NCBI GenBank assembly: GCA_963422205.2
Contig: CAXMWX010000001.1
Span: 512,001-576,000 of the forward strand
Length of the DNA: 64,000 nucleotides
Origin: Gammaproteobacteria bacterium
GTDB lineage: Bacteria > Pseudomonadota > Gammaproteobacteria > Eutrophobiales > Eutrophobiaceae
Reading direction: 5' to 3'
The position numbers and the translations under genes were made by a program. Shown here in pieces: positions 39,678-63,996 of this stretch. How positions within the stretch are numbered: position 1 is the stretch's first letter; each line of letters opens with the position of its first letter. The notes under the pieces were generated by a model. The model was not told where the DNA came from. It did no database searches and saw only the letters and a program-made list of their open reading frames with translations.

Positions 39678-42600
39678 ATCCTGATGAGGCCGAAGCGTCA
39701 TGCTTCGGAATACTTATTATCTATATGGCAGGGGTGGGTTATTCGTGTAGCTTCAATGAGGCCGAAGCGTAATGCTTCGGAATACACTTGGCGAGCTAAC
39801 TTCTCTGTTGGATCAATGGCTAGCTTCAATGAGGCCGAAGCGTAATGCTTCGGAATACAAATAGGAGATGATTATGTCGATGAATAACAATGGTGCTTCA
39901 ATGAGGCCGAAGCGTAATGCTTCGGAATACCTGCGCTCAATCGCGGCAAGCATCTTGCGAAAACCCAGCTTCAATGAGGCCGAAGCGTAATGCTTCGGAA
40001 TACGTAAGGTTGTACAAGCGATCAACAGTGGTGTTGCAATGCTTCAATGAGGCCGAAGCGTAATGCTTCGGAATACGTAAGGTTGTACAAGCGATCAACA
40101 GTGGTGTTGCAATGCTTCAATGAGGCCGAAGCGTAATGCTTCGGAATACTTCAAAAAAGTGTGGCTACCACAAGAGGGTGGGCAAAGCTTCAATGAGGCC
40201 GAAGCGTAATGCTTCGGAATACAGCATAAGTCATACCTAGAACCTCACTTCGATGCTCCGCTTCAATGAGGCCGAAGCGTAATGCTTCGGAATACGTTCA
40301 AGGCCTGGTCTAGCGGACGTATGCGGGTATTGCTTCAATGAGGCCGAAGCGTAATGCTTCGGAATACATAGCTAGTTATTCCGTGCCGATGCCTGCGCTA
40401 ATGCTTCAATGAGGCCGAAGCGTAATGCTTCGGAATACCAGTGAACGCCCGCATCCATGCGGGCTTGGATACGTCCTTCAATGAGGCCGAAGCGTAATGC
40501 TTCGGAATACAAACTCGAACGCGGAACCGAAACTGTAGGAACCTTCGCCTTCAATGAGGCCGAAGCGTAATGCTTCGGAATACAAAAAAGTCTATAGCTT
40601 TCGAAGTAGCCTCTGTAGCACCTTCAATGAGGCCGAAGCGTAATGCTTCGGAATACTCCAGTAACACGGATCAGATACCAGAAAATAAATTATCCCTTCA
40701 ATGAGGCCGAAGCGTAATGCTTCGGAATACAGGGCATGGTGTTTTTAACTCGCGCAGGCTTCGACGCCCTTCAATGAGGCCGAAGCGTAATGCTTCGGAA
40801 TACCATGTCTTCACCTTGTTCATTGTCATAGCCCCCCGTCCTTCAATGAGGCCGAAGCGTAATGCTTCGGAATACGCAGGCCAGTGGCCAGCACATCAAC
40901 CCCGGCATGGTACCTTCAATGAGGCCGAAGCGTAATGCTTCGGAATACAGCGATGCGAGTGGCTGAAATCCTAGAGATCGACCCAGCCTTCAATGAGGCC
41001 GAAGCGTAATGCTTCGGAATACACAATTTACCTTCGCGAGCCTTCTCGGTCTTAATCTCCTTCAATGAGGCCGAAGCGTAATGCTTCGGAATACATGCTT
41101 AACGAAATGCTTAACGCTGGTCACTGGCACTTCCTTCAATGAGGCCGAAGCGTAATGCTTCGGAATACGCTACGGCGCCCGGAATAACCGGCCACCACGA
41201 CGAAACCTTCAATGAGGCCGAAGCGTAATGCTTCGGAATACCAGACGATGTAGCACGTGTGCAGCGAGGATTAGATCCTTCAATGAGGCCGAAGCGTAAT
41301 GCTTCGGAATACGCGTTATATCTTGATCTCTTAGCGCTCGAATATCCAGCCTTCAATGAGGCCGAAGCGTAATGCTTCGGAATACCCGGTGATCATAATG
41401 GGGGTTGATTTCGGCAAGGTCTCCCTTCAATGAGGCCGAAGCGTAATGCTTCGGAATACTTTTCGTTTGCGTTATCTTTTGCCGCCGCCCCCCAACCTTC
41501 AATGAGGCCGAAGCGTAATGCTTCGGAATACATAACCGGCCACCACGACGAAAAAATTCGTCCCGCTCCTTCAATGAGGCCGAAGCGTAATGCTTCGGAA
41601 TACCTTAGTCGGTTTTACCTCGCTTGCCCCCGCCGTTGCGCCTTCAATGAGGCCGAAGCGTAATGCTTCGGAATACTTGCTGAACCAGACGATAAAACAA
41701 AATTATCACGGGCCTTCAATGAGGCCGAAGCGTAATGCTTCGGAATACCACGATCGCTACGTGTCAGCGTAGGCACCGTACGCAGCCTTCAATGAGGCCG
41801 AAGCGTAATGCTTCGGAATACAAACGTGCAGGGTTAAAACCGGTGTTGCTGACAGTGCCTTCAATGAGGCCGAAGCGTAATGCTTCGGAATACTTTGTTT
41901 AGTGTGGTTTTTAATTTTTTCAGAGGCTTACCTTCAATGAGGCCGAAGCGTAATGCTTCGGAATACTCCAGCACCTTCTCGATCATCGCCAAAGCCCGTG
42001 TCCCTTCAATGAGGCCGAAGCGTAATGCTTCGGAATACACTACGGCGAAATTAAATTGTTAGCTGGCTACACAGCCTTCAATGAGGCCGAAGCGTAATGC
42101 TTCGGAATACACTACGGCGAAATTAAATTGTTAGCTGGCTACACAGCCTTCAATGAGGCCGAAGCGTAATGCTTCGGAATACAGTTAGTTTTGATTTTTT
42201 TAGTCGCTTAAACTCGATCCTTCAATGAGGCCGAAGCGTAATGCTTCGGAATACCCAGGAGTAGATGGTAGAGGCTTGTTCTTGATCGCCACCCTTCAAT
42301 GAGGCCGAAGCGTAATGCTTCGGAATACAGCAGATTCTAAGATGGTCTGGTTAGCAAGACGTATGGCCTTCAATGAGGCCGAAGCGTAATGCTTCGGAAT
42401 ACCTGATGGATGTTGATCTGGTCGAGGCCGCCGCCAAGCCTTCAATGAGGCCGAAGCGTAATGCTTCGGAATACGCTATATACAAGTTGCAACAACCGCG
42501 TCAAATCAACGTCCTTCAATGAGGCCGAAGCGTAATGCTTCGGAATACGAGCGGGAGCTGGCCGAGGAAATCGGCAAACGTGTACCTTCAATGAGGCCGA

Positions 42601-45600
42601 AGCGTAATGCTTCGGAATACCGATCAAGTATCTATCGTACGCGTCACGTTAGACGCCCTTCAATGAGGCCGAAGCGTAATGCTTCGGAATACGATGATCC
42701 GAATATCTGCCCAAGGAACCTATTATTATCTTCAATGAGGCCGAAGCGTAATGCTTCGGAATACGTACGCCGGGCGGCGTATGGTTCCGCGACGTCAGAT
42801 TCTTCAATGAGGCCGAAGCGTAATGCTTCGGAATACGCGGCGCTACCCTGGATCAAATAATTCAGCAACTTATCTTCAATGAGGCCGAAGCGTAATGCTT
42901 CGGAATACAACAACCTACTTGTTGCGCCTGATGATTTTACCGTCTCTTCAATGAGGCCGAAGCGTAATGCTTCGGAATACCTGCGACTCGCCCAGCTACA
43001 AGCGCAACAGTGTCTGTCTTCAATGAGGCCGAAGCGTAATGCTTCGGAATACGCAGTCTTTTAATTCGCGTTGCCACTTACGCAGCTATCTTCAATGAGG
43101 CCGAAGCGTAATGCTTCGGAATACAACGCAGTCATACGCAAATTGAAAGTATCACCAGGCATCTTCAATGAGGCCGAAGCGTAATGCTTCGGAATACTAC
43201 CATAGAGGCGATGGGTTATTTTCGTTTTTTCGACTCTTCAATGAGGCCGAAGCGTAATGCTTCGGAATACCTGCGACTCGCCCAGCTACAAGCGCAACAG
43301 TGTCTGTCTTCAATGAGGCCGAAGCGTAATGCTTCGGAATACGCAGTCTTTTAATTCGCGTTGCCACTTACGCAGCTATCTTCAATGAGGCCGAAGCGTA
43401 ATGCTTCGGAATACTAGCAGCATAACCTACTCGCCCACCTGCTCACCTGCTCTTCAATGAGGCCGAAGCGTAATGCTTCGGAATACACCACGATTACCAT
43501 GCAACAACACTTCCGGGTATGGGCTTCAATGAGGCCGAAGCGTAATGCTTCGGAATACGATTTAAAAAGCGGAACCTAGGTCCAAGCATAGGCTAGCTTC
43601 AATGAGGCCGAAGCGTAATGCTTCGGAATACATTTGCCTAGTTATGCTTTTATTTTTCCTCGCGGTAGCTTCAATGAGGCCGAAGCGTAATGCTTCGGAA
43701 TACGAGGACAGGGCGTATATCATGCCATCCGAATTTCATGCTTCAATGAGGCCGAAGCGTAATGCTTCGGAATACAATTATCGTGATTATTAATAATATC
43801 TTGATGGGGGTGCTTCAATGAGGCCGAAGCGTAATGCTTCGGAATACGTCGCAGCAGCCGATCCCCCTAGCATGTTGCCGCGGCTTCAATGAGGCCGAAG
43901 CGTAATGCTTCGGAATACCGGGAACTGTATAGCGAACGTGACGGCGCCTATGAACGCTTCAATGAGGCCGAAGCGTAATGCTTCGGAATACGTACAGAGC
44001 TACTGTTGCTAATTCTGTCGGCGTGTAGCTTCAATGAGGCCGAAGCGTAATGCTTCGGAATACTGTTTTACCCTAGGCCTTACCCTAGGTGACCTCATTT
44101 GCTTCAATGAGGCCGAAGCGTAATGCTTCGGAATACCGTTTTAGCCCTGTTTTACCCTAGGCGCCCTCATTTGCTTCAATGAGGCCGAAGCGTAATGCTT
44201 CGGAATACGACGACATCAAGACGGGCAAGGTATACGCTGATCATGCTTCAATGAGGCCGAAGCGTAATGCTTCGGAATACTGCCCATCATCTAGCGACAC
44301 GACGATCTTGACGCGGGTGCTTCAATGAGGCCGAAGCGTAATGCTTCGGAATACATATTTTTTCGAGTTGCTGATCTAATTATTTTCAGCAGCTTCAATG
44401 AGGCCGAAGCGTAATGCTTCGGAATACCTCATCCTCACGTAGTACCGCCGCAGAATTGTTGCGGCTTCAATGAGGCCGAAGCGTAATGCTTCGGAATACG
44501 GAGAAAAAAATGCCAAGATCAAAAAAACAAATACAGCTTCAATGAGGCCGAAGCGTAATGCTTCGGAATACATCTGCCTAGTTATGCTTTTATTTTTCCT
44601 CGCGGTAGCTTCAATGAGGCCGAAGCGTAATGCTTCGGAATACCGGGAATACCAAGATGCTTCTCGGCCACTTCCAGATCGCTTCAATGAGGCCGAAGCG
44701 TAATGCTTCGGAATACAAACTATCACCAACTGACTAATCACTTAGGTATACGCTTCAATGAGGCCGAAGCGTAATGCTTCGGAATACTTAATCTTCATAA
44801 TTAATGTAGTCCTCCACTAATTGCTTCAATGAGGCCGAAGCGTAATGCTTCGGAATACTTCCGCTGTTGGTAGCGTCCACGATTACTGTATCAAGCTTCA
44901 ATGAGGCCGAAGCGTAATGCTTCGGAATACGTTTTACCCTAGGCCTTACCTTAGGTCACCTTACTGCTTCAATGAGGCCGAAGCGTAATGCTTCGGAATA
45001 CTTCAAGATCACCGTTGCAAGGGCGGGGGGTGCTAATGCTTCAATGAGGCCGAAGCGTAATGCTTCGGAATACATCATTTCCGCCAAAAACAAATGACAA
45101 GCGCCCCTTGCTTCAATGAGGCCGAAGCGTAATGCTTCGGAATACTAAACGGCGCTGATCGTAACGACATCATTGCCGACAGGCTTCAATGAGGCCGAAG
45201 CGTAATGCTTCGGAATACTTAAATCTGCTGCTGATAGATATCTCCACATACCGCCGGCTTCAATGAGGCCGAAGCGTAATGCTTCGGAATACGCGAATAT
45301 CAGCAGCTCGTTAGCGCAGGCATCCGCAAGGCTTCAATGAGGCCGAAGCGTAATGCTTCGGAATACACGCATCCATGCGTGCTTGAATACGTCAAAATAT
45401 GGCTTCAATGAGGCCGAAGCGTAATGCTTCGGAATACAAAGCCGGGAGAGATCCAGACTCAGAAATTGCCTTCGCTTCAATGAGGCCGAAGCGTAATGCT
45501 TCGGAATACTTCACTTTGCGGTCTTATAGCTCGTCAACATTCGACAGCTTCAATGAGGCCGAAGCGTAATGCTTCGGAATACCAAAATTATCTCGGGTAA

Positions 45601-48600
45601 GTCCCGGCGCAGCTTGCAGCTTCAATGAGGCCGAAGCGTAATGCTTCGGAATACGGCGGTAAACCAAGCGCAAAAAGAAGTGACGGTGAACGCTTCAATG
45701 AGGCCGAAGCGTAATGCTTCGGAATACTGCGTCACTTTTCTTCGAATGCCACGTCGTCCTCACAGCTTCAATGAGGCCGAAGCGTAATGCTTCGGAATAC
45801 CAAGCCGGGAATCAACCAAAGGTACATAGAATACGGAGCTTCAATGAGGCCGAAGCGTAATGCTTCGGAATACTTTTTAGTGGTTATGGGAAACGAAAAT
45901 AACATGAATTGCTTCAATGAGGCCGAAGCGTAATGCTTCGGAATACGGGCCCGCTACCAGGGAATAGAATCCCTCCAACAGTAGCTTCAATGAGGCCGAA
46001 GCGTAATGCTTCGGAATACCAACAGGTGTTCCCAACACCACGTCACGATCAATGGCGCTTCAATGAGGCCGAAGCGTAATGCTTCGGAATACAGGTTATC
46101 TAAGCAGACGCCAATAACTATAGACGTAGCTTCAATGAGGCCGAAGCGTAATGCTTCGGAATACGAAGTGATCCAGACTCGGAAATTGCCCGCAAAGTGT
46201 GCTTCAATGAGGCCGAAGCGTAATGCTTCGGAATACCGTGACATAGCGATCGGTATCGTCGAGCGAGAAATGCTTCAATGAGGCCGAAGCGTAATGCTTC
46301 GGAATACCACTACTAGCGGGAGCAACAGCCAAAAAATCGGCACGGCTTCAATGAGGCCGAAGCGTAATGCTTCGGAATACAGGGTCGCCAGCAACGCTGT
46401 CTGTACGCACCAGCCGGCTTCAATGAGGCCGAAGCGTAATGCTTCGGAATACTCCCTAGCTAGTTGCGCCGATGAGCTGTACGCCTTGGCTTCAATGAGG
46501 CCGAAGCGTAATGCTTCGGAATACGCAGTAACACGTGATCGCCCTTCAGGATCATACGCATGCTTCAATGAGGCCGAAGCGTAATGCTTCGGAATACTCC
46601 CTAGCTAGTTGCGCCGATGAGCTGTACGCCTTGGCTTCAATGAGGCCGAAGCGTAATGCTTCGGAATACGCAGTAACACGTGATCGCCCTTCAGGATCAT
46701 ACGCATGCTTCAATGAGGCCGAAGCGTAATGCTTCGGAATACCCCAGATGTCGTAATACATTTCCTTTGCTTTGTCGAGCTTCAATGAGGCCGAAGCGTA
46801 ATGCTTCGGAATACTCTACCTGCAATTGCATTGCCAGGATTCGCATTACCGCTTCAATGAGGCCGAAGCGTAATGCTTCGGAATACGCCCATCATCTAGC
46901 GACACGACGATCCTGATCCGGACGCTTCAATGAGGCCGAAGCGTAATGCTTCGGAATACGGCAGAAGCGAGTAACACTGATGCAATACCAGCAAGGCTTC
47001 AATGAGGCCGAAGCGTAATGCTTCGGAATACCGGATCAGATTGATCGGGCGGGTGGCGTCGACAAAAGGCTTCAATGAGGCCGAAGCGTAATGCTTCGGA
47101 ATACGGCTAGGCCGACTAACCGATCACATAATTCAATCAAGCTTCAATGAGGCCGAAGCGTAATGCTTCGGAATACAGCGGAACCCCGTCCAGCAAAAAA
47201 GAAATACGTCCCCGCTTCAATGAGGCCGAAGCGTAATGCTTCGGAATACCACAACTGCCCCCGGTAGAATGGGAATAACTCAGTGGCTTCAATGAGGCCG
47301 AAGCGTAATGCTTCGGAATACGATGATACCTAGTTGCTTCGCATACAGCGATCCAGCGCTTCAATGAGGCCGAAGCGTAATGCTTCGGAATACGTACAGA
47401 GCTACTGTTGCTAATTCTGTCGGCGCGCAGCTTCAATGAGGCCGAAGCGTAATGCTTCGGAATACTGAGTATACTACTGGTGGAGATGGGAAAACTAAAA
47501 GCTTCAATGAGGCCGAAGCGTAATGCTTCGGAATACTTGGGCGCTTGGGGCTAATGCCGATCCGATACCAGGCTTCAATGAGGCCGAAGCGTAATGCTTC
47601 GGAATACGGCGTTGGGTTTTCGCAAGGCGCTCTTGCGACCCGCGCTTCAATGAGGCCGAAGCGTAATGCTTCGGAATACATCAGATTGATCGGGCGGGCG
47701 GCATCGGCAAAAGTGAGCTTCAATGAGGCCGAAGCGTAATGCTTCGGAATACCGCCGCGGAAAAGGTACATAGATCAATGCCGCTTCGTGCTTCAATGAG
47801 GCCGAAGCGTAATGCTTCGGAATACCGCCACACTAACTGTCTCGCCACGTGACACCCGTGGCTTCAATGAGGCCGAAGCGTAATGCTTCGGAATACGTGA
47901 TGAAGCGGTGCAGATATTAGATCAACTAGGATGCTTCAATGAGGCCGAAGCGTAATGCTTCGGAATACATACGCGTAGACGCCCGGTCGTGTAGTTCCAC
48001 AAAAGCTTCAATGAGGCCGAAGCGTAATGCTTCGGAATACCATTTTTTTCTTGCGGTCTTTCTCGATCACAACAACGCTTCAATGAGGCCGAAGCGTAAT
48101 GCTTCGGAATACTACACTGGCCGCAAGGAACATCGATTGGCATATCGGAGCTTCAATGAGGCCGAAGCGTAATGCTTCGGAATACGCTTAAACTCGATAA
48201 AAAAAATTTCGCCGGAAGACGCTTCAATGAGGCCGAAGCGTAATGCTTCGGAATACGGCCATGTTTGCTTTTTTCCTCGTGGTAGCTAATTAATGCTTCA
48301 ATGAGGCCGAAGCGTAATGCTTCGGAATACGGCCGTGACTGCATACCCATCACCGGATCGAAAGACGCGCTTCAATGAGGCCGAAGCGTAATGCTTCGGA
48401 ATACGACCCTAGATCAAGAAATTGAAAAGATTGAAAACGAGCTTCAATGAGGCCGAAGCGTAATGCTTCGGAATACAAGTTTTCCCTCGCGAGCCTTTTC
48501 GCTCTTTATCTGGCTTCAATGAGGCCGAAGCGTAATGCTTCGGAATACGAAGTTTTCCCTCTCGAGCCTTTTCGCTCCGCACCTGGCTTCAATGAGGCCG

Positions 48601-51450
48601 AAGCGTAATGCTTCGGAATACTCATCATGTATTGTTCTTGTCGTTTCTTTCTGCCTAGCTTCAATGAGGCCGAAGCGTAATGCTTCGGAATACCAAGCCC
48701 TACGTATCTGGTGCTATTACCTTCCATCGTGCTTCAATGAGGCCGAAGCGTAATGCTTCGGAATACTACTGCAAAAAAAATTAAGTGAATCAGGGATCAA
48801 ACGCTTCAATGAGGCCGAAGCGTAATGCTTCGGAATACCAGGGTATTATTGTAACTGGTGTAATTTTTCAAAATCGCTTCAATGAGGCCGAAGCGTAATG
48901 CTTCGGAATACCAGCTACGGGGTCGATCTTTTTTCCGATCTTCGCCGCTTCAATGAGGCCGAAGCGTAATGCTTCGGAATACCCGATGATATTACGGGCC
49001 ACAGTAATAGGGAGTTAGCGCTTCAATGAGGCCGAAGCGTAATGCTTCGGAATACAGAGTGTCGATAATATCTCTGCGATTAGACCAAACCGCTTCAATG
49101 AGGCCGAAGCGTAATGCTTCGGAATACTTTTGTTCTGTGGTTTGGTCGCCGTCTAACTATGTCGCTTCAATGAGGCCGAAGCGTAATGCTTCGGAATACC
49201 TCGCATTTGTTCCTGTCTTAATATTTGCCCGCCAAGCTTCAATGAGGCCGAAGCGTAATGCTTCGGAATACTCGGCATATTCACCAGGTCGCTGGTGGTG
49301 AGGCTCCAGCTTCAATGAGGCCGAAGCGTAATGCTTCGGAATACAAACCAGTTCACTCCAGAGACTCTTGGTCGTAGATCGCTTCAATGAGGCCGAAGCG
49401 TAATGCTTCGGAATACTCCAGTTTTTAGCTGCTCTGCGTTTATGCGACGCAGGCTTCAATGAGGCCGAAGCGTAATGCTTCGGAATACACACCATGCGTT
49501 AGGTGTGGAGGTGCCGGAACTAGCGCTTCAATGAGGCCGAAGCGTAATGCTTCGGAATACAGCTCTCCCGCCTATACCACCCGATGTTGCTGGCGGGGCT
49601 TCAATGAGGCCGAAGCGTAATGCTTCGGAATACCCGCCAAGCGTTCATCGATGACGGTTTCGTAGATCCGGCTTCAATGAGGCCGAAGCGTAATGCTTCG
49701 GAATACACGGCGAGCTGGCGCTGAACGGCAATCCGATTAATGGGCTTCAATGAGGCCGAAGCGTAATGCTTCGGAATACTGCCGGTATCGCATCGCTGTT
49801 ACCACTACGCGCCCAAGCTTCAATGAGGCCGAAGCGTAATGCTTCGGAATACTCCCGCAGACTGATATAGAGTCACCAGTAGAGGCAGAGCGCTTCAATG
49901 AGGCCGAAGCGTAATGCTTCGGAATACGAAAATAATTAGATCAGCAACTCGAAAAAATATAGGTGCTTCAATGAGGCCGAAGCGTAATGCTTCGGAATAC
50001 AAACGTTACGGGAGAGGAAGAAGAAAATGAGTATGAAGCTTCAATGAGGCCGAAGCGTAATGCTTCGGAATACTTCGCTGCCGCCGCAAACACTCGATCA
50101 AACGGGTGATTTGCTTCAATGAGGCCGAAGCGTAATGCTTCGGAATACTGGAGACCCTACAGTTTATTTTGTACGCTATAGCGGGCTTCAATGAGGCCGA
50201 AGCGTAATGCTTCGGAATACCGAATCGTAGTGTAGTGGATATGCTTACCTCGCAGGCTTCAATGAGGCCGAAGCGTAATGCTTCGGAATACCTGACTTTG
50301 GGCGCAACCAACAATTTGAGGTCGACGGTGCTTCAATGAGGCCGAAGCGTAATGCTTCGGAATACAAAAAAACAAATACAGAATTGGGATGAGGAACTAG
50401 CGCTTCAATGAGGCCGAAGCGTAATGCTTCGGAATACCTTCGTAAAACCATGGTTAGAAAAATTTAATGTTCCGCTTCAATGAGGCCGAAGCGTAATGCT
50501 TCGGAATACGCTGCTGAGATAGGGCAAGCGATCAACGGCACGCAAGCTTCAATGAGGCCGAAGCGTAATGCTTCGGAATACTATTCCCCCCGCCCTATAC
50601 TGTGTTTGTCGGATCGAGCTTCAATGAGGCCGAAGCGTAATGCTTCGGAATACCAGTCGGCGATGTTGCTACAGTAGCGACACAAACAAGCTTCAATGAG
50701 GCCGAAGCGTAATGCTTCGGAATACAGGATGATCCAGACCAGGGCGGGGATGGTGATGCTGGCTTCAATGAGGCCGAAGCGTAATGCTTCGGAATACACA
50801 GTGCAGATGAGGTTGTGTATACTATTTTTTCGGGCTTCAATGAGGCCGAAGCGTAATGCTTCGGAATACCCTAGGAGTCAATTCGTAGGGGCGCTGATAG
50901 GCCTCAAGCTTCAATGAGGCCGAAGCGTAATGCTTCGGAATACGCATCGCAGGGCGTTGCCAGGGGTTGCCTTGCTCGAGGCTTCAATGAGGCCGAAGCG
51001 TAATGCTTCGGAATACATCCTCGAGTCTGTAGATTTCAGCAACGGAGTGCTCGCTTCAATGAGGCCGAAGCGTAATGCTTCGGAATACAATTGGAGTAAG
51101 TTTTACTCTTATGTCTCTCGCCAGGCTTCAATGAGGCCGAAGCGTAATGCTTCGGAATACCGGAAGGTAAAACAAACATTCTATCCGGCCACGATCTAGC
51201 TTCAATGAGGCCGAAGCGTAATGCTTCGGAATACAGCGATCGACAACACCGCCTCTTGGGCGCGTAGTGGGCTTCAATGAGGCCGAAGCGTAATGCTTCG
51301 GAATACACAAACCACCGCCGAGAACAGCCGCAGTTCCAGGATGCTTCAATGAGGCCGAAGCGTAATGCTTCGGAATACGCAAGCGATCAACGGCGTGCAA
51401 CAAAAATATTCGTAGCTTCAATGAGGCCGAAGCGTAATGCTTCGGAATAC
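39678..51450 (-). CRISPR. Type I-G CRISPR array, about 163 repeats and 162 spacers (35-39 bp)
   Basis: 36-bp repeat, GTATTCCGAAGCATTACGCTTCGGCCTCATTGAAGC on the minus strand (hairpin CCGAAGC...GCTTCGG, ATTGAAG 3' end). Degenerate trailer repeat at 39678-39713; leader lies next to cas2. Manual count. Confidence 0.99.
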
Positions 51451-51656
51451 AGCCTTGCCGTATCACCTGCTATGGCAGGGTCTAAAAACTCCCAGTGCGA
51501 GCGCTGATCAGCCAAGACCGAAATACGCATCCACAATTTATGTTGTGCATACATAACAACAGCATAACCCCTTGTTTGTTAAAGAGCAACACCAATGCGA
51601 GCGCTCCCCGGTGATAGCATCATCACCGCCGCACTCGCTAACGTCAGGCAAGTTCA
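51451..51656 (-). promoter_or_regulatory. CRISPR leader
   Basis: Between the first repeat and cas2; TGCGAGCGCT twice (51496-51505, 51596-51605), inverted GCACTCGC near 51631, AT-rich IHF-like segment TAACCCCTTGTTTGTTAAAG. Confidence 0.85.
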
Positions 51657-51947
51657 TCATACGATGATCGGTTCCCGAACAACAGCGTTAAATTCCTTGC
51701 CGAGGCTGGTCACTCTCGGCGCCACCGCATCGGCAGGCCCCAGATCCAGTATCAAGATATGATCCTCTCGATGGTGGATCAGCTCATCCAGCATGGCGAT
51801 GAGCTCCGCATGGCGCCTGGCGGACAAACGGCACTGGAAGACAGATAATTGCAACCATTCGCCATAGCCACGCAGCAGCGTGAATATGGCGCGCCCGCGC
51901 CTGGCATCGCCGATGTCGTATGCGATCACATAAAGATGCTCATTCAT
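51657..51947 (-). CDS. cas2: Cas2
   Basis: YVIAYDI, GEWLQLSVF; 96 aa; follows cas1. Confidence 0.96.
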   Translation of the reverse strand: MNEHLYVIAYDIGDARRGRAIFTLLRGYGEWLQLSVFQCRLSARRHAELIAMLDELIHHREDHILILDLGPADAVAPRVTSLGKEFNAVVREPIIV

Positions 51948-51953
51948 GTCGCC

Positions 51954-53699
51954 TCATCTGGTTATCAGTTGTGGAAAGGCGATCATATCGCCTAACAGAA
52001 ATCTGGAGAGCAACCTGGCCTGCAATTCAAGCAGGCGCCGATAACTCAGCCGGTAGCCAAACAGCGGGTGCGTTATCTCCTGGCTTAGGCGTCTTTCATA
52101 GGCGGCGATAAAACGCTTGCGCCCATCGGCGGTTAAATTAACACTGCCAGCGGCGGCGACAAAGTCGCTTGGCCTGAGCTCGCCATTGTTAATCACGGTA
52201 AGCACGGTGGAGTCCGCTATGAGTGGTCGGAACGGCTCCATCATGTCCAACGCCAGGGCCGGTCGGCCATAGCGGGGCTGATGATAAAACCCGCGGTAAG
52301 CATCAAAGCCGACTGCCGTTAAGGTCACCGTCCAGGTCTTCACCAGCAAGGCATAGGCGTATGAGAGCATGGCATTGACCGCATCGGCGGGCGGGCGGCG
52401 GTTGCGGCTGGCAAAATCAAAGGTGATGTTCTGGTGTGCTTCCTGGTGTTTAATGAGATAGTCAAATGCGCCGAAATAGTTCGCTGCCGCGTTGCCCTCC
52501 ACCCCCAGCAGCTGCTGGATGGATGAGGCCCGGCCAGCCTGGTCGGCATCGCGCCGCAGGGTCTTTATCAGTGGCTTGCTGCTGTGTTCTGCCTTCCAGT
52601 TACGGCGCAACAAGGTACGGCAATTCAAAATCTTCGCACGCACCAGGCCCCTGGCTAACGTCAAACACACCTGCTCATCAAAACTCGCCTTGTATTGGGC
52701 GGTGCGTATTTCAACATTCTTATGACCCACGCCAATGCTGTGTCCTAAAAACCAGCCGCCGTAAGAGTGCCAGCTCACCGGTATTTCCCGCCGCATCAAC
52801 TCATGCAGGGTCGGCGTTGTCAGATAAATATTGCCCATCAATATCACCTGCGAGACATCCACCAGACGGGCGTGGGTCACCGGCTCATCGCCAATGGAAA
52901 TCTCCAGCCGCTCGCCGCGCTTGCGAACAGCCGCCTTATGCGCCTGAACATACAGCGGCAGGGCGGTATCATGGCCGATGGTCAGCAGCCTTGGCGGGGT
53001 ATCGGTTCTGTGAAAAAAATTCACCTCATCCGGCAGGCAAATACCCACCAGCGAACAGCGCGGACACTTAGGGCTGTCTTCGAGCGGGGGCGGCATCTGG
53101 CCGCCCGCGGCGATCAACCGCATCCCATTGATCGCGGACAATGTCGCATTATGCAGTTCCTCATCAAATCGTACCGCTACCTTCTCTTTCGAGCCGGCAA
53201 AATACAGAAAACCCGAATCGCACTCATAGCCATGCTCTTGCAGCAACATGCCTTGCAGGCACAGTTGCACGCGCTCCGGCGCATAAGCGCCCTTGGCAAC
53301 GTGCGGTCGTTTGCCTTTTTTATAATCCACCGGTATCACCTTGCCCGCCTCCGCCTCCACCAGGTCCAGCTTGGCAATGACGCCGAGGCGCTCTGATGAC
53401 AGCGTGACGGAGCGTGAATGAAAAGCATCATCCTGGTTCAGCTCGGTCGCTGCCGGTAATTTGTTATCCGGCGTATCAACGCGCCGATGCTGATAACGGC
53501 CGGCCACGGTATCGGCGGATTCAGCCCATTCGCCCTGCACCCATTCAAGGTAGGCAAGGCGCGGACAATACTGGTATTCATTCACCATCCGTGCAGGCAA
53601 CAGCGGCAGCGCTGCTGAGAGTTCCGGTGCAGGCAAGGGCAATGTTATCTGGGTATCCGTCATGTCAGAACATTGGTTTATTTTTCCGACCGCTATCAT
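51954..53699 (-). CDS. cas4/cas1: Cas4-Cas1 fusion (type I-G)
   Basis: Cas4 YCPR...DYKKG...CPRCSLVGIC; Cas1 LLGVEG, RNRRPPADAVNAMLSYAY, LALDMMEPFR. Start may be 53663. Confidence 0.96.
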   Translation of the reverse strand: MIAVGKINQCSDMTDTQITLPLPAPELSAALPLLPARMVNEYQYCPRLAYLEWVQGEWAESADTVAGRYQHRRVDTPDNKLPAATELNQDDAFHSRSVTLSSERLGVIAKLDLVEAEAGKVIPVDYKKGKRPHVAKGAYAPERVQLCLQGMLLQEHGYECDSGFLYFAGSKEKVAVRFDEELHNATLSAINGMRLIAAGGQMPPPLEDSPKCPRCSLVGICLPDEVNFFHRTDTPPRLLTIGHDTALPLYVQAHKAAVRKRGERLEISIGDEPVTHARLVDVSQVILMGNIYLTTPTLHELMRREIPVSWHSYGGWFLGHSIGVGHKNVEIRTAQYKASFDEQVCLTLARGLVRAKILNCRTLLRRNWKAEHSSKPLIKTLRRDADQAGRASSIQQLLGVEGNAAANYFGAFDYLIKHQEAHQNITFDFASRNRRPPADAVNAMLSYAYALLVKTWTVTLTAVGFDAYRGFYHQPRYGRPALALDMMEPFRPLIADSTVLTVINNGELRPSDFVAAAGSVNLTADGRKRFIAAYERRLSQEITHPLFGYRLSYRRLLELQARLLSRFLLGDMIAFPQLITR

Positions 53700-53863
53700 A
53701 GCAGTAATGCTGGGCAGGCTTTAGCGAAGATGCGGTGGATGACGCTAAGGCAGCATCGTGTTTACAGGCAAGTGAAATAAGGCAGCGGTATGTATGCCAT
53801 ACGCCCTGGCTTTAATTACTTGTACTTCATAACTCGCTGCCGCCCGGTGTTACCTCTCATCCG

Positions 53864-54808
53864 TTATGTTGCTGGCTCAACGGGGACAGCAGCCGTGAAG
53901 TTACGGTATTTGCCAACAGTAATGCGCTGAGAGCGGTATATTTCACCAATACCACGCGCTTGAAGTGCATCAAAGTCTTGGTGTGTAAAGACAGGTTTTT
54001 GCAGTACTTTTATTGTTAAAAGAGAACGTACAGTATCCAAACCCACAGGAAAGCGCCACATCGGCCAGGCCCAGAAGGTATCTTTACTGCCTTTCCCCCG
54101 AAAACCTATGGTGTGCAATTGCTGGCCTACCGGGGCAGTTGACATAAGCGGAAGTCCTTCAATCGCCAATCTGTTTGCTCCCCGAACCGTCATGATGGTA
54201 TCTCCACTCGGATCCCTCCATCTAAGTGCGTAACGCCGGTCATCTACAGGGTCCCAACGGAGACTTGGTTTTTCATCAGCGTATGTCCACTGATGAAACA
54301 GGGCGCTTTTCAGATCGGTTTTTTTCGTTTCCTCTCTTATCTTTCGCATGGACTTCAAAAAATGCTGGTGTCCTGCACCACTCATGGTTCTCAAGGCAGT
54401 ATCCACAATCATACCTTTATCGTCTGTAACTGCCTCAGAGCCAAGGGCCGCCAAAAATCTTACATATTCTTGCTCGTCAAACCTTGCTCGTTCCAAGGCA
54501 TCAGCAGCAATTTTACGGAAGCAGTCAGGAGAGAATTTTATGTTATCGCTCAGTTCAAATGCTTCACTACCGGGGGATTTTTCTAAGAACAGGGCTAATT
54601 GTTCAAGCAGCTCATCTTGCGTTATGGCGATGCCAAATTTCAATGCCGGATTCCACACCGCCCGGGCACACCAGTAAAGTTTGGGATCCCATGCAGGCTT
54701 GCATAATGAACAGGAACGCAAAGTGCCCAAGGCCGCCAAAAAACCCAATGGGTTGGCACCGTTAATTCCGACCAGGATATGCTCGTTCTGTTTTTTCTGC
54801 TGATTCAT
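53864..54808 (-). CDS. cas8g: Type I-G large subunit, short Cas8g (Csb3-like)
   Basis: GANPLGFLAALG, SLRWDP, GANRLAIEGLP; coupled to the cas3 stop. Confidence 0.8.
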   Translation of the reverse strand: MNQQKKQNEHILVGINGANPLGFLAALGTLRSCSLCKPAWDPKLYWCARAVWNPALKFGIAITQDELLEQLALFLEKSPGSEAFELSDNIKFSPDCFRKIAADALERARFDEQEYVRFLAALGSEAVTDDKGMIVDTALRTMSGAGHQHFLKSMRKIREETKKTDLKSALFHQWTYADEKPSLRWDPVDDRRYALRWRDPSGDTIMTVRGANRLAIEGLPLMSTAPVGQQLHTIGFRGKGSKDTFWAWPMWRFPVGLDTVRSLLTIKVLQKPVFTHQDFDALQARGIGEIYRSQRITVGKYRNFTAAVPVEPAT

Positions 54809-57717
54809 CAGGCAACCTGCCGTTCAATTTGCTGGTGCTTTTGCTCTTCTTCACTGCTTCTCCAATCCGCCAGGCGCATCAAAGTCTCCAGCCATGCCAA
54901 CCCCCACCAGCCATAACGGCGCACCAGCAGCCAGAAGCGCTCACTGATGCCGCTATCTATACGTTCAAGCCCTGTATTAGTATCGGCACTGAGTTCATGA
55001 CTATCAAAAGTCATTGTCACTTTTTGCGGTGCTTGATCGTGAATGACCGGTGCAAATGGACGGCAACGACCATGATGGCTGGCGATAAGGTGCAATACCA
55101 AGTCCGAGTCATGCGCCTGGCGCAGTAATACCGGTGCGCTTTCCGCCAGGCGCACGGAGAGCAGTTCATGCCGACCGCCTTTGGGGTAGCGGCTGCTTTT
55201 ACGGGCGGCGCGACGCTGCCTTGGGCTTGCCGATATTCGTCCGGACTTGGCAAGTAACTTTCCTGATGCTTTTGCCAGCCAGGGATTACCCTGATGCAGC
55301 AATGCCTGAAAGCGAGGATCGATCTTGCCCAAATCGTGTAGCCGTGCCGCCAGGATGATATCCTCACGCAGTTTCACATCCAAACCCTCAGTAAAACATC
55401 TCGCCCAGCGTCCCACGCCTTCCAGGTGTTCTGTCAATTCCACCGGCACAGTGGCCGAGGATAAATCATCTTCATCGCTGAAGGATGAATGCTCTTCATC
55501 ACTCGGCAGGTTTTTACTACCCTGCAATATCCAGCCGCCACAGGGATGCGGCAAACAGCGCAGTTTTTTATCGCTTGCAAGCGCCGAAGCGATTTCTTTC
55601 AGCCAGTCCGGCTCCGCCGTCTTGCTGAGTGTATCCAGTGGCTGACGTAACACCTGATACGCATCGTCTGCTGGAATATCGGTCTGCTCAACAAACTGCA
55701 TAAAGAAATCACGCATCTCCCCCGTCGGCCAGCGCACCAACAATGCCGGATGAATGCGTAATACAGGGCGTCTTTTCATTTTGAATACGGCCTGCTCGGC
55801 GCAATCTTCCCAAGCACCTTGCGGAATATGCCCCAGGTCATCCCAGCCTTTTTGCGTTGCTGGTAATACCACCACATCACCGGGACGCAGGTCGGCAGGT
55901 TCTTGGTAAATCCGGCTTTGCTCATCTTCCGGGCCGAACCAGCGAATGAATCGCCTCTCCTGATTGCTCTTGCTCTGCACATCGTCAGCCAACCTCTGCC
56001 CGTCAACATCACTGAGTTGATCAGTGACATCGCTGCCCTGTAACCATGAACGCATCACCGCCAGAGGCACCGGCATACACTCCATCGCCAGCGGCATGCA
56101 CAGCCCCAGCGCTTCTATGCAGGATGACTCATCCTTTATTATCAAATCAGCACGCCAGCACACCAGCACATCCGCCGGGCCACGCTTTGGACCGTGCAGA
56201 AAAACGGCAACATCGGGATCGGGTGCCGGTTTGGGCGAGGTTTGCACCAATAAATCCAGATGGGAAGGCAACAGCACCGGCGCATTTTGGGCAGGCGTGG
56301 AGAGTGGTTGTAATAATTCCCGACAAGCATCTTCCTCAGCAGGCAGTAACTGCTGAAATTGCTTGATGCCGAAATCAATCTGTTCTCGTCCATCTTTGGT
56401 TAGCCATTGCCAGGTGTTGGCCAGAGCCTCGCCGTACACCGGATCGGGCGACTCTGTTTTAATTTGATCCTGCCGCACCATGATCACGCCACGGGCATCA
56501 ATCTGACAGCCACCGCGATTCAAGCGCCCGAACCGTTGCCGCAAGGCATCCAGCCCGGCACACTCAGTAACCAGCACATCAAAATCCAGATTGGCACCCA
56601 CTTCCAGGGTCTGCGTGGCCACCACCACGACCGGTCGTTCGAGGCTACGCTCAGCATCACCGCTACGCACCGCCAGTTTATGTATCCATTCACCAACGAT
56701 GGCATCCTTGTCCACAGTACGCATACGACCGGTGAGCAACACACTGTCAATATCACCCCGGGCCTGCAAATCCTGGTAAATCAGACATGCGGTTTTCACC
56801 CGGTTGACGATCACACCTATTGCCTGCACACCGCTTTCAAGGAAGATCTCTATCTCGCCGTTCATCGCCTTGGCCAATTCGGGTAGCGCCGCCTTGTCTT
56901 TGGCTTTTTTCGCCTCCTTTAACTCAACCGGCTTGGATGCCATGATTCTCGGCCCCAGCACCTCATGGCTTTTATCATCATCGTCAATCCTGAATATCTC
57001 ATCCTCGCTCACCTCATCCGGCGGTGTTGCCGACAGCATGGTATGGACGAAGGGGGCGGCCAGCTTTTCGCTTTCCGCCCATCGGCGGTATTTGCCAATC
57101 GCCTGCAAGGTTTGTCGGAACGGATTGGCACAATGTGCCTCATCAAGGATAATCAGAGCATCGTTGGCCGCCATTGCCGCGTGTATGGGCACCGTATAAT
57201 CAGAGCGTAAGCCGTAACCCCGGTATAACAGCCTAGAGCCGATCTGATCGACCGTGCTGGCGATAACGCAGGGTTGCAACGGATTTCTTATCCATTGATC
57301 ATCGCGATAGATCCCGCCACGTAGCTGCACACAGGCCAACGGCAAGGGGCCGCTTGCCAGTGTACGCAAACGTTGGGCAACGGTGTGCAATATACCCACC
57401 TCGGCTTGCTCAAGTTTGGCGGCGATTCTCTGCGCCCGTTCATAAGCCTCATCAACGATGATCCGGCGATCAACCACAAAAAAGATCCGCCGGGGCGCTG
57501 CACACTGGGCTAACTGCTGCTCTGCCTGACTGGCCAGGGCGAACAAGGCGATATCCATGCAAGCGGTTTTACCAGCACCAGTGGGCACGGCAATACAGGG
57601 TGGCCACGGCTCGCCCTTCGCGATTCGCAAGGCCAGTTTTTTCTGCCAGGGGAAGGGAGCATAGCCATGCAGTGCCTGAAAAAAATCCGTAAACTGCTCT
57701 GCTTGCAAGGCTGGCAT
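54808..57717 (-). CDS. cas3: Type I-G Cas3 (helicase first, HD domain C-terminal)
   Basis: PFPWQ, VPTGAGKT, LDEAH, SATP, QRFGRLNR; C-terminal HL...LHDLGK...HE...HHG...LADW. Confidence 0.96.
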   Translation of the reverse strand: MPALQAEQFTDFFQALHGYAPFPWQKKLALRIAKGEPWPPCIAVPTGAGKTACMDIALFALASQAEQQLAQCAAPRRIFFVVDRRIIVDEAYERAQRIAAKLEQAEVGILHTVAQRLRTLASGPLPLACVQLRGGIYRDDQWIRNPLQPCVIASTVDQIGSRLLYRGYGLRSDYTVPIHAAMAANDALIILDEAHCANPFRQTLQAIGKYRRWAESEKLAAPFVHTMLSATPPDEVSEDEIFRIDDDDKSHEVLGPRIMASKPVELKEAKKAKDKAALPELAKAMNGEIEIFLESGVQAIGVIVNRVKTACLIYQDLQARGDIDSVLLTGRMRTVDKDAIVGEWIHKLAVRSGDAERSLERPVVVVATQTLEVGANLDFDVLVTECAGLDALRQRFGRLNRGGCQIDARGVIMVRQDQIKTESPDPVYGEALANTWQWLTKDGREQIDFGIKQFQQLLPAEEDACRELLQPLSTPAQNAPVLLPSHLDLLVQTSPKPAPDPDVAVFLHGPKRGPADVLVCWRADLIIKDESSCIEALGLCMPLAMECMPVPLAVMRSWLQGSDVTDQLSDVDGQRLADDVQSKSNQERRFIRWFGPEDEQSRIYQEPADLRPGDVVVLPATQKGWDDLGHIPQGAWEDCAEQAVFKMKRRPVLRIHPALLVRWPTGEMRDFFMQFVEQTDIPADDAYQVLRQPLDTLSKTAEPDWLKEIASALASDKKLRCLPHPCGGWILQGSKNLPSDEEHSSFSDEDDLSSATVPVELTEHLEGVGRWARCFTEGLDVKLREDIILAARLHDLGKIDPRFQALLHQGNPWLAKASGKLLAKSGRISASPRQRRAARKSSRYPKGGRHELLSVRLAESAPVLLRQAHDSDLVLHLIASHHGRCRPFAPVIHDQAPQKVTMTFDSHELSADTNTGLERIDSGISERFWLLVRRYGWWGLAWLETLMRLADWRSSEEEQKHQQIERQVA

Positions 57718-59297
57718 TACGAGCGTTCTTCACGCATGGGACGCAACAGGCCATAGCCACGAAAGCGCCCGGCACCCAGCAATATAGGCCCCTGTACCGG
57801 CTGGGAAAACTCCAATACTACATGACTATGGCGCATGGTACCGCCACCCTGCTTGCGTTGCATGGGGGGATAAACATGCTGAGGCGGTACGCCGATGATC
57901 GGGCTGATACCTGTAGCCAAAACATGCGCTGGTCGCGGCAGGCTGATACGCTCACAGGCCAAGGTGAGCATTCCGGCAATTTGTTTGTCTTTATCCTTAC
58001 CCTTGGGATGCCGATCAAACACCACGGGTGTGACCGAGGCCCAACAGGTAGCGGGGCGATTCCAGGTATCCGCCCTCAAGGCAAACGGCGGAAAATCAGC
58101 AAGTTCCAACTGCACTTGCCAATCAAACAAACGGCCATGATAAAGCCGAAGTGGCTGTTGATGACCGGCATCATCGAATTGCGTCAGCCAGCCGAAATAA
58201 TGATGCAAGGCATCTTGCGGTGCGGTTCTCGGCAGGGCGATGGCAACGCCAAGCAGGTGACCATCGGCATGTTCACGACCCACATGCGGCAGGGGAAACA
58301 TGGCGATATGGGGTTGGCGGGATGGCGCACCTTGGCGGCTGTGGCCGCTAATCCACTCAGGGATTGGCGGTTTGCAATTCTTCAACAGCGTATCTCGCAG
58401 CGTTTTCGTCAGTAGCAACGTGCTTTCAAGCCCTAGCGGTCTGCCGCTGATGCGCTTGATGATAATCAATCTGGGATCAAATAAACTGCCCAGTATTTCT
58501 CTGGCAGCACCGCTGTCTTTAATTCTTGCATAGCCCTGCGCTCTTCCCCGCTCAGGGCGCAGGCGCTTTGGTTCGCCGGCAGGAAATTCGTTGTTAATCT
58601 GTTCTTTTAATCTGCGTCTATCATTTCTTGTGGCGCTTTCATGTTCTGCCTTCAACCCATGGTATTCATCAATCGCCGCTTCGTTATAAAAGCGTTTAAG
58701 CGCATCTAACCGGCCAGGCCACGGAACACGGAGGCTGTAATCACGTCGGTCGTCACTCGGCACAAGACTTCCCCCGGGCGGATTCTGACAGAGCCAGACC
58801 TGCACCAGCGATGCCGAGTGTCCAAGCGAAGTCACATTGCGGCATAAATGAACCAGAGCGTTTTCCCATTCCAAAGGCTGGCTATCTGTCCAGATGAAGT
58901 ACACCCGGGGGTCATCGGGGATGGCAACGGGGAAATGCCTGGGTTGCCGTGAGCGCTTTTCCGGTAACAAGGAAAGACCGCTTTTTAACTGTTCTTTTGA
59001 GGGAGTTCCGTTTTCTCTTAATCTTGGCATCTGCACATCATTCACCGGTACATAGCTGGTCACTGTTTTTCGCGGTTTTGCCAGTGAGCAGTATAATGAT
59101 GGTGCGCCCTGATGCTCCAGCCATTGTAACGCCTGTTCGGCCTCGGTCCTCGGGACATCATCAGCCTGAAAACAAGCGGCGGTCAAGGCCATAAACAAAC
59201 GCTCTGGATGCGGCGGCCATTCGGCCTGCTGTTTCTTGGCCCCGTCCGCCGCCGCCATTGACCAGCCCATCAGGTAATGTACGCCGATGGTCAGCAT
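57717..59297 (-). CDS. csb2: Csb2 (Cas5-Cas6 fusion), intact
   Basis: EWPPHPERLFMAL, YVPVND, WASVTP, C-terminal G-loop LGAGRFRGYGL. Confidence 0.92.
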   Translation of the reverse strand: MLTIGVHYLMGWSMAAADGAKKQQAEWPPHPERLFMALTAACFQADDVPRTEAEQALQWLEHQGAPSLYCSLAKPRKTVTSYVPVNDVQMPRLRENGTPSKEQLKSGLSLLPEKRSRQPRHFPVAIPDDPRVYFIWTDSQPLEWENALVHLCRNVTSLGHSASLVQVWLCQNPPGGSLVPSDDRRDYSLRVPWPGRLDALKRFYNEAAIDEYHGLKAEHESATRNDRRRLKEQINNEFPAGEPKRLRPERGRAQGYARIKDSGAAREILGSLFDPRLIIIKRISGRPLGLESTLLLTKTLRDTLLKNCKPPIPEWISGHSRQGAPSRQPHIAMFPLPHVGREHADGHLLGVAIALPRTAPQDALHHYFGWLTQFDDAGHQQPLRLYHGRLFDWQVQLELADFPPFALRADTWNRPATCWASVTPVVFDRHPKGKDKDKQIAGMLTLACERISLPRPAHVLATGISPIIGVPPQHVYPPMQRKQGGGTMRHSHVVLEFSQPVQGPILLGAGRFRGYGLLRPMREERS

Positions 59298-59300
59298 TAC

Positions 59301-60527
59301 TTAATCTTCCGCACCTGTTTGGATTGCCGTCTGTTTCTGGCTGCGTCTGACTAAATCAACCAGTTGCGGAGAGGGTGAAAGTACCAGTTTTTGCTCCATC
59401 CATGGCAGGTTTCTCTCTCTCGCCTCATCCAGGGCCCGGTTAAATACGGCAATCGCCTGTTCGGCGTTGAGTGTAAAACGGGCCGGTGCTGTCTCGGGAT
59501 CATCCAGCAATTCCCACACAAATGAACTTTGTGGGAACAGCTGGCAGCGCGAGCGCAGATCCAGCCCTTTCTCTCGCATCAGGGTTGCCGCCAGCAAACC
59601 AAGCCCCGCCAATACCGTCCTTGCTGCCCGGTTGGTTTCCACATCAGAGCGCGTATCGCCAAACGGAAAACACAAACGGCGCAACGCTGGCAGGGAAAGC
59701 ACGGTAGTCTGCAAGGCTTTGTCCATGGTGATCCCGCCGCCTTCGCCTTCTTTGGAGATTGAAGGCACCACATTCCCATGATTTACTTCTGACGGCTTGC
59801 CGTCTTTACCGCACTGAACGGGCTTATCTTTTTCCCTTCTTGCGTCACTCTCATTAAGTGTCCAGCTACCATTTTGCGCTTGATACACGGGGCCTGCACT
59901 CTTTACTATCGCCGCCGGATCAATGCGGCTGCCGGTTTTCACACCTATCTTTGCATTGATGCCGATGATCTCCGATACCAGAGCGCGCGCAAACTTCGCT
60001 CCCAACCCACCACGCGGGCCAGCCGAATCCCACATCCCGAATACCAACGCTGTCGGGCATAATTCCAGTAAGGGCGTGGCATTTTTATTGCTGACATCAT
60101 CAAGCCTTCTGCCATGTTCGGTGCTGCGGAACAGAACACCGTTCCGTTGGCTATCCCGCAACAGGGCATCGGCGATACGGTGCGGTGCCTCCAGGCTGGT
60201 GATGTGCAGGTCTTTTGCCAATTCATGGCCCGCAAAATCCACAGTAATCACTGGCAGAGAGATGTGGCCATCATCCCAGGCTTCCAGCAAGGCGAGTTCC
60301 ATATGATTCGCTTCTGACTGTACCGAGTTTAGTAATACGCAAGGTACCGGCATATCATAACCTGGTAACACACGCTCTTCGATGGCATACTTGCCACCTT
60401 CATAGGTTGGCGGGAAAACTTTATCACCCGGCCCGCCCATCGGCTGATATTCCGTCACGCAACGAAAGGCCGCCGCTGTGCCTGCAACCGCACTCTTCAC
60501 CACATCAAATGTTAGTTCACCAGTCAT
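59301..60527 (-). CDS. csb1: Csb1 / Cas7g backbone, intact
   Basis: KVFPPTY, SVQSEANHME, PHRIADA, PTALVFGMWDS, LRSRCQL. Confidence 0.93.
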   Translation of the reverse strand: MTGELTFDVVKSAVAGTAAAFRCVTEYQPMGGPGDKVFPPTYEGGKYAIEERVLPGYDMPVPCVLLNSVQSEANHMELALLEAWDDGHISLPVITVDFAGHELAKDLHITSLEAPHRIADALLRDSQRNGVLFRSTEHGRRLDDVSNKNATPLLELCPTALVFGMWDSAGPRGGLGAKFARALVSEIIGINAKIGVKTGSRIDPAAIVKSAGPVYQAQNGSWTLNESDARREKDKPVQCGKDGKPSEVNHGNVVPSISKEGEGGGITMDKALQTTVLSLPALRRLCFPFGDTRSDVETNRAARTVLAGLGLLAATLMREKGLDLRSRCQLFPQSSFVWELLDDPETAPARFTLNAEQAIAVFNRALDEARERNLPWMEQKLVLSPSPQLVDLVRRSQKQTAIQTGAED

Positions 60528-60631
60528 GCCTATCTCCTCATCGGAAAGTGAAATACATTGAAAAATTAACGCATTATATTATATTTCGCCCCACTAGGCT
60601 CATAACACCTGTTCGAAATCCATATCATTCA

Positions 60632-60766
60632 TCACAGCATCACTGCCGTCTTTCCCATGCCAGTGGGTACGGCCAGCACGGTCGGCCAGGCCGCCTCGAC
60701 CAGACGGGATTGATACGCATAGGGTTCGTCCCCCGTCGCCTTCTTAAAGAATTGTGAATAATTCAT
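60632..60766 (-). pseudogene. cas3: N-terminal 44-aa relic of another Cas3
   Basis: Manual translation MNYSQFFKKATGDEPYAYQSRLVEAAWPTVLAVPTGMGKTAVML*: Q-motif plus Walker A, paralleling the N-terminus of the intact Cas3. Confidence 0.8.
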
Positions 60767-60769
60767 GAA

Positions 60770-61963: not shown

Positions 61964-61971
61964 GACTAGCC

Positions 61972-63996
<2,025 letters not shown>

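Follow-up and report, generated by a model that had tools for sequence, protein, structure and literature searches.

In a type I-G CRISPR array, we found that the last base of the repeat switched three times as the array grew, and that each new base recurred in every repeat up to the next switch. The array lies in a stretch of 64,000 nucleotides (nt) from Gammaproteobacteria bacterium of the family Eutrophobiaceae (NCBI GenBank assembly GCA_963422205.2, contig CAXMWX010000001.1, positions 512,001 to 576,000 of the forward strand), hereafter called the window. It is highly probable that later repeats copied the altered base from the first, leader-proximal repeat. The new base itself was most likely introduced when only 35 base pairs (bp) of the 36-bp repeat were duplicated, a step partly shown by sequences flanking the targets. 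The chances that the whole chain holds, with the base originating in the target, are about even.

Blocks of the terminal repeat base

A fuzzy search with the 35-nt repeat core found 163 copies at positions 39678-51450, and 162 of them had no mismatch. From low to high coordinates on the plus strand, the base that precedes the core is first G (10 repeats), next C (31), then T (11) and finally G again (110) (Table 1). There is no exception inside any of the four blocks, and the remaining 35 nt are invariant across the 162 repeats. These repeat counts and block coordinates match exactly those given in the preliminary description of this DNA. Since the leader and the cas genes, including those for Cas4/1 and Cas2, are at the high-coordinate end and a degenerate repeat is at the low end, the array is read on the minus strand with its newest units at high coordinates, which is also the orientation first proposed. 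In the sense of the CRISPR RNA (crRNA), the repeat is GUAUUCCGAAGCAUUACGCUUCGGCCUCAUUGAAG-N, and the variable base N reads C, G, A and C from the oldest to the newest block. Chance cannot have arranged 162 repeats in three unbroken blocks.

An assembly or sequencing artefact was considered; identical repeats over 12 kb make an array difficult to assemble. Unitigs of one public run (X1, possibly the source data) span positions 40300-43700 with zero differing letters and reproduce all spacer-repeat junctions there. Thus, the C and T variants are present in reads and are not consensus errors. Errors would not give clean blocks either, and similar blocks occur in independent assemblies, so that the probability of an artefact is negligible.

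The blocks are well explained if, in each acquisition, Cas4/1-Cas2 duplicates the whole 36-bp leader-proximal repeat and places the leader-distal (spacer-side) cut by distance, whatever the last base may be. Every later repeat would then inherit any change made to base 36 in the first one. Such a replacement would have happened three times during acquisition, namely C to G, G to A and A to C in the crRNA sense. Faithful copying of the G and A variants indicates that the distal cut does not read base 36. Duplication independent of the terminal base is also recorded, in arrays and not in an assay, by the clean blocks of the window and of three arrays in other genomes (L024, L077 and L080). The preliminary description had seen in the window a record of a ruler mechanism for Cas4/1-Cas2. 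This proposal holds in that the altered base is copied regardless of its identity and that the effect is specific to position 36 in 57 arrays; it does not extend to the anchor of the ruler, because an anchor at the leader junction and one at a mid-repeat motif are indistinguishable from sequence.

Ruler-type duplication has precedents. In the H. hispanica type I-B system, the distal cut is sequence-independent and ruler-set, and substituted repeat ends are duplicated accurately (Wang et al. 2016, PMC4872114). Goren et al. (2016, PMC5039180) describe the same type of duplication with engineered repeats in the E. coli type I-E system. Those rulers were found with engineered laboratory repeats, whereas the window holds a natural type I-G array.

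Unequal recombination has occurred within the array, as indicated by exact duplications of repeat-spacer units (spacers sp5=sp6, sp33=sp34, sp46-47=sp50-51 and sp94-95=sp96-97) at 40004-40113, 42039-42146, 42981-43378 and 46453-46706. Recombination might also have brought in whole blocks from other arrays or from conspecific strains with C, T or G repeats, and arrays with G in all repeats do occur in other species (L020 and L086). However, no second array with the same repeat was found elsewhere in the genome. The exact repeat was also absent from other arrays in 126 genomes of the order, where the loci read have another consensus and C at the end. Recombination would merely shift the origin of the variants to the donor, and three different donors in strict order would be needed. 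We therefore consider imported blocks very improbable.

Position 36 in other type I-G arrays

The preliminary description had suggested that other I-G arrays be surveyed for the same blocks. We took 80 Cas4/1 loci from species genomes, the other ~460 I-G loci lying outside this set. Arrays were present downstream of cas2 in 56 of the 80, which gave, together with the window, 57 arrays with 1991 non-terminal repeats. Because terminal repeats are often degenerate at the 3' end, boundaries with terminal repeats (L042, L044, L045, L089 and L020) were left out of the switch count.

Similar blocks were indeed found in L024 (33 G over 13 C), L077 (31 C over 6 G) and L080 (65 C, 2 G and 4 C), and L046 has a lone G repeat adjoining its terminal repeat. 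Including the window, there are 8 switches at position 36 (window, 3; L080, 2; L024, L077 and L046, 1 each), and 7 of them are transversions. Variants at position 36 form 5 runs of at least two repeats and 1 singleton. At positions 1-35, by contrast, 24 of the 25 variant runs are singletons, and the only longer one is at position 2 of L076 (Fisher p=2e-4). The contrast in transitions and transversions between position 36 and the other positions was not significant (p=0.098). Since random mutation rarely strikes the leader-proximal repeat and blocks predominate at position 36, the change is very likely to arise in the first repeat during acquisition.

C is the usual base at position 36. It was found in all of ten arrays added by even sampling of the class, one of which has an old block at position 13, and in the arrays read from the family of the window, except for one T in the small degenerate array L099. 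G is present in all repeats of L020 and L086. T at position 36 was seen only in terminal repeats without spacer use (L042, L045 and L089). Terminal repeats often deviate at positions 34-36, as in L042, L045, L089, L044, L021, L057, L073 and L087.

An ordinary point mutation of the first repeat at a neutral position, unrelated to integration and copied later, should be weighed here, since copy-forward is expected for any change of the first repeat. Blocks at other positions exist: repeats 24-28 of L076 changed from C to T and back at position 2, and repeats 38-43 of L149 form an old block with T at position 13. These two are the rare cases expected from ordinary first-repeat mutation. In addition, the base at position -1 of the crRNA handle, with which base 36 is equated below, is possibly unconstrained (PMC9638904). 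However, a random mutation strikes the first repeat only about once per array length, and the ratio of runs to singletons at position 36 is the reverse of that at positions 1-35. Transversions prevail among the changes at position 36; unconstrained terminal repeats show T there in three arrays (L042, L045 and L089). Moreover, a single base of the window repeat changed three times, while the other 35 x 162 positions are unchanged. An unrelated point mutation is therefore improbable as the source of the switches.

Other CRISPR types are known to show repeat variants in blocks. We found no literature report of propagated terminal-base blocks in natural I-G arrays, which does not prove that none exists. 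The I-G systems (formerly I-U) of G. sulfurreducens (Almendros 2019, PMC6547450) and M. barkeri (PMC10504553) resemble that of the window in the fused Cas4/Cas1, the TTN protospacer-adjacent motif (PAM), the modal 36-bp spacer, the repeat end AGC and the integration of the PAM end on the spacer side. We found no propagated altered terminal base described in these accounts.

Origin of the new base

Normally, the incoming PAM-end strand would be joined at the repeat-spacer junction. If it were joined 1 nt short, only 35 bp would be duplicated, and the PAM-proximal terminal base of the spacer would then fill position 36. The next acquisition would cut by distance and copy that base. The captured base would be the N of the TTN PAM left by a slip of Cas4, or the protospacer base +1. 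Errors of this kind are known in vitro: in the M. barkeri I-G system, the site of spacer-side joining is correct in only 60-70% of cases, and slips of Cas4 by 1 nt occur (Dhingra and Sashital 2023, PMC10504553).

The preliminary description had proposed that each new base is the next base of the target. At the first switch, this is what we found. The switch spacer sp11 and another spacer, sp79, which overlaps the same target in a shifted register, agree at 23 of 26 positions by eye (23/25 by BLAST), and sp79 continues with C-A-A on the plus strand. The flank is thus TTG in the crRNA sense, and its G is the new repeat base. For the third switch, the preliminary description had called for the protospacer of the spacer at 43487-43522 and for the expected base beside it. 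The PAM-proximal 24 nt of this spacer (sp53) match one metagenome contig (L096) exactly, and the match is preceded by C, which is the new base. The expected base is therefore present, but the match is partial: the other 12 nt agree at only 5/12 positions, and the flank is TAC and not TTN.

Several points weigh against an origin in the target. The agreement rests on two indirect matches, one of them to sp79, which differs from sp11 at 3 of 26 positions. Two of two would arise by chance with p = 1/16. The sp53 match is located in a giant open reading frame with dockerin domains. Partial matches may mislead in general: positions 1001-1022 of L135 are an exact 22-nt stretch shared with the otherwise unrelated viral contig L134, with different flanks, and this island calls for caution on PAMs read from partial spacer matches. 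At the boundary in L020, a viral contig contains a protospacer that matches the spacer at 35/36 positions and has the PAM TTC, while repeats 1-9 carry G; this G/C boundary adjoins the terminal repeat, which belongs to a class that is often degenerate. The middle switch spacer, sp42, had no match among exact 22-mers of IMG/VR or in metagenome contigs. All three switches away from C (window, L024 and L080) led to G, although G is the N of only 2 of 13 TTN flanks, so that simple capture does not predict the outcome. No excess of +1 slips, in which the first base is shared with the next-older spacer, was detected (26.1% versus 25.2% in the control). Finally, the spacer of the original switch would be lost in any deletion that spans a boundary, so boundary spacers need not be causal.

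The claim therefore stands at two indirect agreements (sp79 and the partial L096 match), one disagreement of uncertain standing (L020, flank C versus repeat G) and one switch with no target found (sp42), and the target origin of the new base is only partly supported by these sequence comparisons.

Further matches were sought widely. In IMG/VR, exact 22-mers of the PAM-proximal ends gave nothing for sp53, sp11, L024_33, L077_31, L080_65 or L080_67 either, and only L020_9 matched. BLAST of window positions 39714-47700 against plasmids returned other arrays only, and BLAST of the L080, L024 and L077 arrays against phages matched no boundary spacer. When whole arrays were compared with 40 relatives, all 126 genomes of the order and 400 of the class, the matches were arrays and no protospacers. 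A search of the window's own genome gave only a target shared with a second array, and no target was found in the contigs of run X1. The new base equals the first base of the spacer itself in 4 of 9 boundary spacers by eye, which is not significant, and there was no base bias at spacer position +1. The equal length of the three switch spacers, 36 nt, had been offered as a clue to a 35-nt duplication. It carries no weight, because spacers are 35-39 nt long and 36 nt is the mode (79/161); in the length comparison, the switch spacers are neither longer nor shorter than the others.

In the window, protospacer flanks were read from spacers that overlap in a shifted register and from one spacer with a phage match (sp48, see below). 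In nine non-boundary spacers of the window, the flank base equals the repeat base in 2, which is the chance level. Since the base within blocks is unrelated to the flank, normal acquisitions duplicate all 36 bp. Over all arrays, 21 flanks were read, and 13 of them are TTN (TTC 6, TTT 3, TTA 2 and TTG 2), one being the TTA of a second L020 protospacer. A TTN PAM is thus supported, as in G. sulfurreducens (PMC6547450). The 8 non-TTN flanks include 2 self-targets and several diverged matches.

These flanks also bear on routine capture, in which 35 bp would be duplicated each time. This is the rule in the E. coli I-E system, where the last repeat base comes from the invader PAM at every acquisition, the duplication covers 28 of 29 bp and a deviant base is not passed on (Swarts et al. 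2012, PMC3338789). The two systems may be alike in that the last repeat base beside the PAM-proximal spacer end can stem from the invader PAM. They differ in that the window normally duplicates 36 bp and its deviant bases were propagated through 11 to 110 acquisitions. Any capture is also rare in I-G, with about 8 visible switches in 1991 repeats. Under routine capture, blocks would not form, and yet the deviant bases of the window run through 31 and 11 repeats; flank and repeat base disagree in 7 of 9 in-block flanks of the window, and in L020_5 and L024_44 too. Routine capture was thus rejected as next to impossible.

A switch may also be linked to acquisition without being templated. Base 36 would be miswritten during joining or gap repair with a bias to G, the same base as at position 35, by misincorporation or by aberrant resolution at the repeat-spacer junction, for example, and would then be copied by the ruler. 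This accounts for the exclusive change from C to G despite the rarity of G in the PAM, for the L020 boundary, and for G in the single L046 repeat and throughout L020 and L086. The predominance of blocks at position 36 fits it and capture equally well. However, no known repair error yields C to G preferentially, the window also has changes of G to A and A to C, and both readable flanks of the window switches equal the new base. Untemplated miswriting is rather unlikely on balance, though the most probable of the rival readings. More generally, handle selection, integration-site selection and a non-templated, G-biased junction error are possible reasons for the preference for G and the restriction of T.

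Within the capture explanation, a narrower version can be put forward tentatively, and we hold it to be somewhat doubtful: a 1-nt Cas4 slip in the PAM coupled with a 35-bp duplication would write the N of the invader PAM into position -1 of the handle, and the ruler would copy it onward as a heritable register mark. If so, integration errors would be preserved in long arrays together with their dates. Which variants the Cas5-less I-G effector or the integrase tolerates could then be read from the marks that survive, among which C and G are common and A is rare, with U confined to unused terminal repeats.

The finding, of modest novelty and moderate interest, documents in a natural array adaptation mechanics that are already known. 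Ruler duplication and imprecise spacer-side joining had been shown with engineered repeats or in vitro, and the ruler in subtypes other than I-G. The window and at least three other arrays provide natural in vivo evidence that Cas4/1-Cas2 copies the terminal repeat base unread and that errors are concentrated at the single base 36. Arrays with C, G or A at position -1 of the handle kept acquiring spacers. In practice, end-base blocks can serve to put the segments of long I-G arrays in order and to date them.

The locus, the crRNA handle and other targets

The locus is a CRISPR-Cas system of type I-G, and all genes at 51657-63996 are on the minus strand (Table 1). Profile matches cover the I-G interference set: TIGR02621 (761.8 bits), TIGR02165 twice, TIGR02570 twice, and TIGR04106, whose 123 bits are slightly below the cut-off of 125 in a gene left incomplete by the window edge. 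Two csb2-like genes (526 and 397 amino acids) and two csb1/cas7g genes (408 and 300 amino acids) are present at 57717-63070, an apparent duplication of the I-G backbone and processing genes. The 397-amino-acid csb2-like protein covers only profile positions 2-350 of 492.

Table 1. Positions of the array segments, the switch spacers and the neighbouring genes in the window
Feature	Positions	Strand	Remarks
Degenerate terminal (oldest) repeat	39678..39713	-	Differs from the 35-nt core at 6 positions; variable base A
Oldest block, 10 repeats and spacers	39750..40438	-	Plus-strand G (crRNA-sense C); variable base at 39750-40403
Switch spacer 1 (sp11), 36 nt	40439..40474	-	Abuts the first C-type (crRNA G) repeat
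Block of 31 repeats and spacers	40475..42692	-	Plus-strand C (crRNA-sense G); variable base at 40475-42657
Switch spacer 2 (sp42), 36 nt	42693..42728	-	Abuts the first T-type (crRNA A) repeat
Block of 11 repeats	42729..43486	-	Plus-strand T (crRNA-sense A); variable base at 42729-43451; includes the duplicated unit pair sp46-47 = sp50-51
Switch spacer 3 (sp53), 36 nt	43487..43522	-	Borders on the newest G-type (crRNA C) block at its first repeat
Newest block, 110 repeats, reaching the leader	43523..51450	-	Plus-strand G (crRNA-sense C); variable base at 43523-51415
Spacer sp79	45367..45401	-	Overlaps the sp11 target in a shifted register; flank C-A-A on the plus strand, TTG in the crRNA sense
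Leader, 206 nt	51451..51656	-	From the cas2 stop to the first repeat
cas2	51657..51947	-	PF09827, TIGR01573
cas4g/cas1g fusion, integrase and PAM-end nuclease	51954..53699	-	NF049935, 826.8 bits (cut-off 560)
I-G interference genes: Cas3-extension, cas3g, csb2, csb1, second csb2-like, second csb1, cas8g2	53864..63996	-	cas8g2 cut by the window edge

In a fold of the repeat, nt 6-12 pair with nt 18-24. Cleavage by Csb2 in the T. sulfidiphilus I-G system takes place 4 nt 3' of the hairpin, so that an 8-nt handle remains (PMC9638904). The window repeat and that of the T. sulfidiphilus array (L049) are identical in their last 13 nt, and a 36-nt repeat with this hairpin and the 3' tag AUUGAAGC fits an 8-nt 5' handle when the T. 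sulfidiphilus cleavage site is applied. By this analogy, the variable base, which is base 36 of the repeat and lies directly beside the PAM-proximal spacer end, is position -1 of the predicted 8-nt 5' handle AUUGAAGN; the preliminary description had placed it there as well. Because the handle is reported to contact no subunit other than Cas7.1 in the T. sulfidiphilus structure (PMC9638904), C, G and A at position -1 may well be tolerated by the I-G effector.

BLAST of the window array against phages gave a sole match, of sp48 (43125-43161, 37 nt) to the VP1 gene of a gokushovirus. Its flank is GTT in the crRNA sense, which could be a register slip, and no further window spacer matched two gokushovirus genomes. 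Two spacers (13399-13434 and 15561-15596) of L080, an unrelated I-G array, also match the major capsid gene of gokushovirus (Microviridae). Judging from these matches, I-G systems of different hosts appear to target small single-stranded DNA phages.

Two leader-proximal spacers of L024 (12388-12424 and 12461-12497) match perfectly elsewhere in the same genome (G142, contigs C94 and C36). The flanks of these self-targets are TGG and TGC and not TTN, which may explain why they are tolerated.

Outside the window, the genome carries a second CRISPR array on contig C7 (~463036-463824) with 13 perfect 36-nt repeats and spacers of ~25-28 nt. Its repeat has an end like that of Cas12a (type V-A) repeats. 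The target site of sp74 (window positions 45002-45037) is also covered by a spacer of this second array with an offset of one base, as would be expected from the overlapping T-rich PAMs TTTV and TTN.

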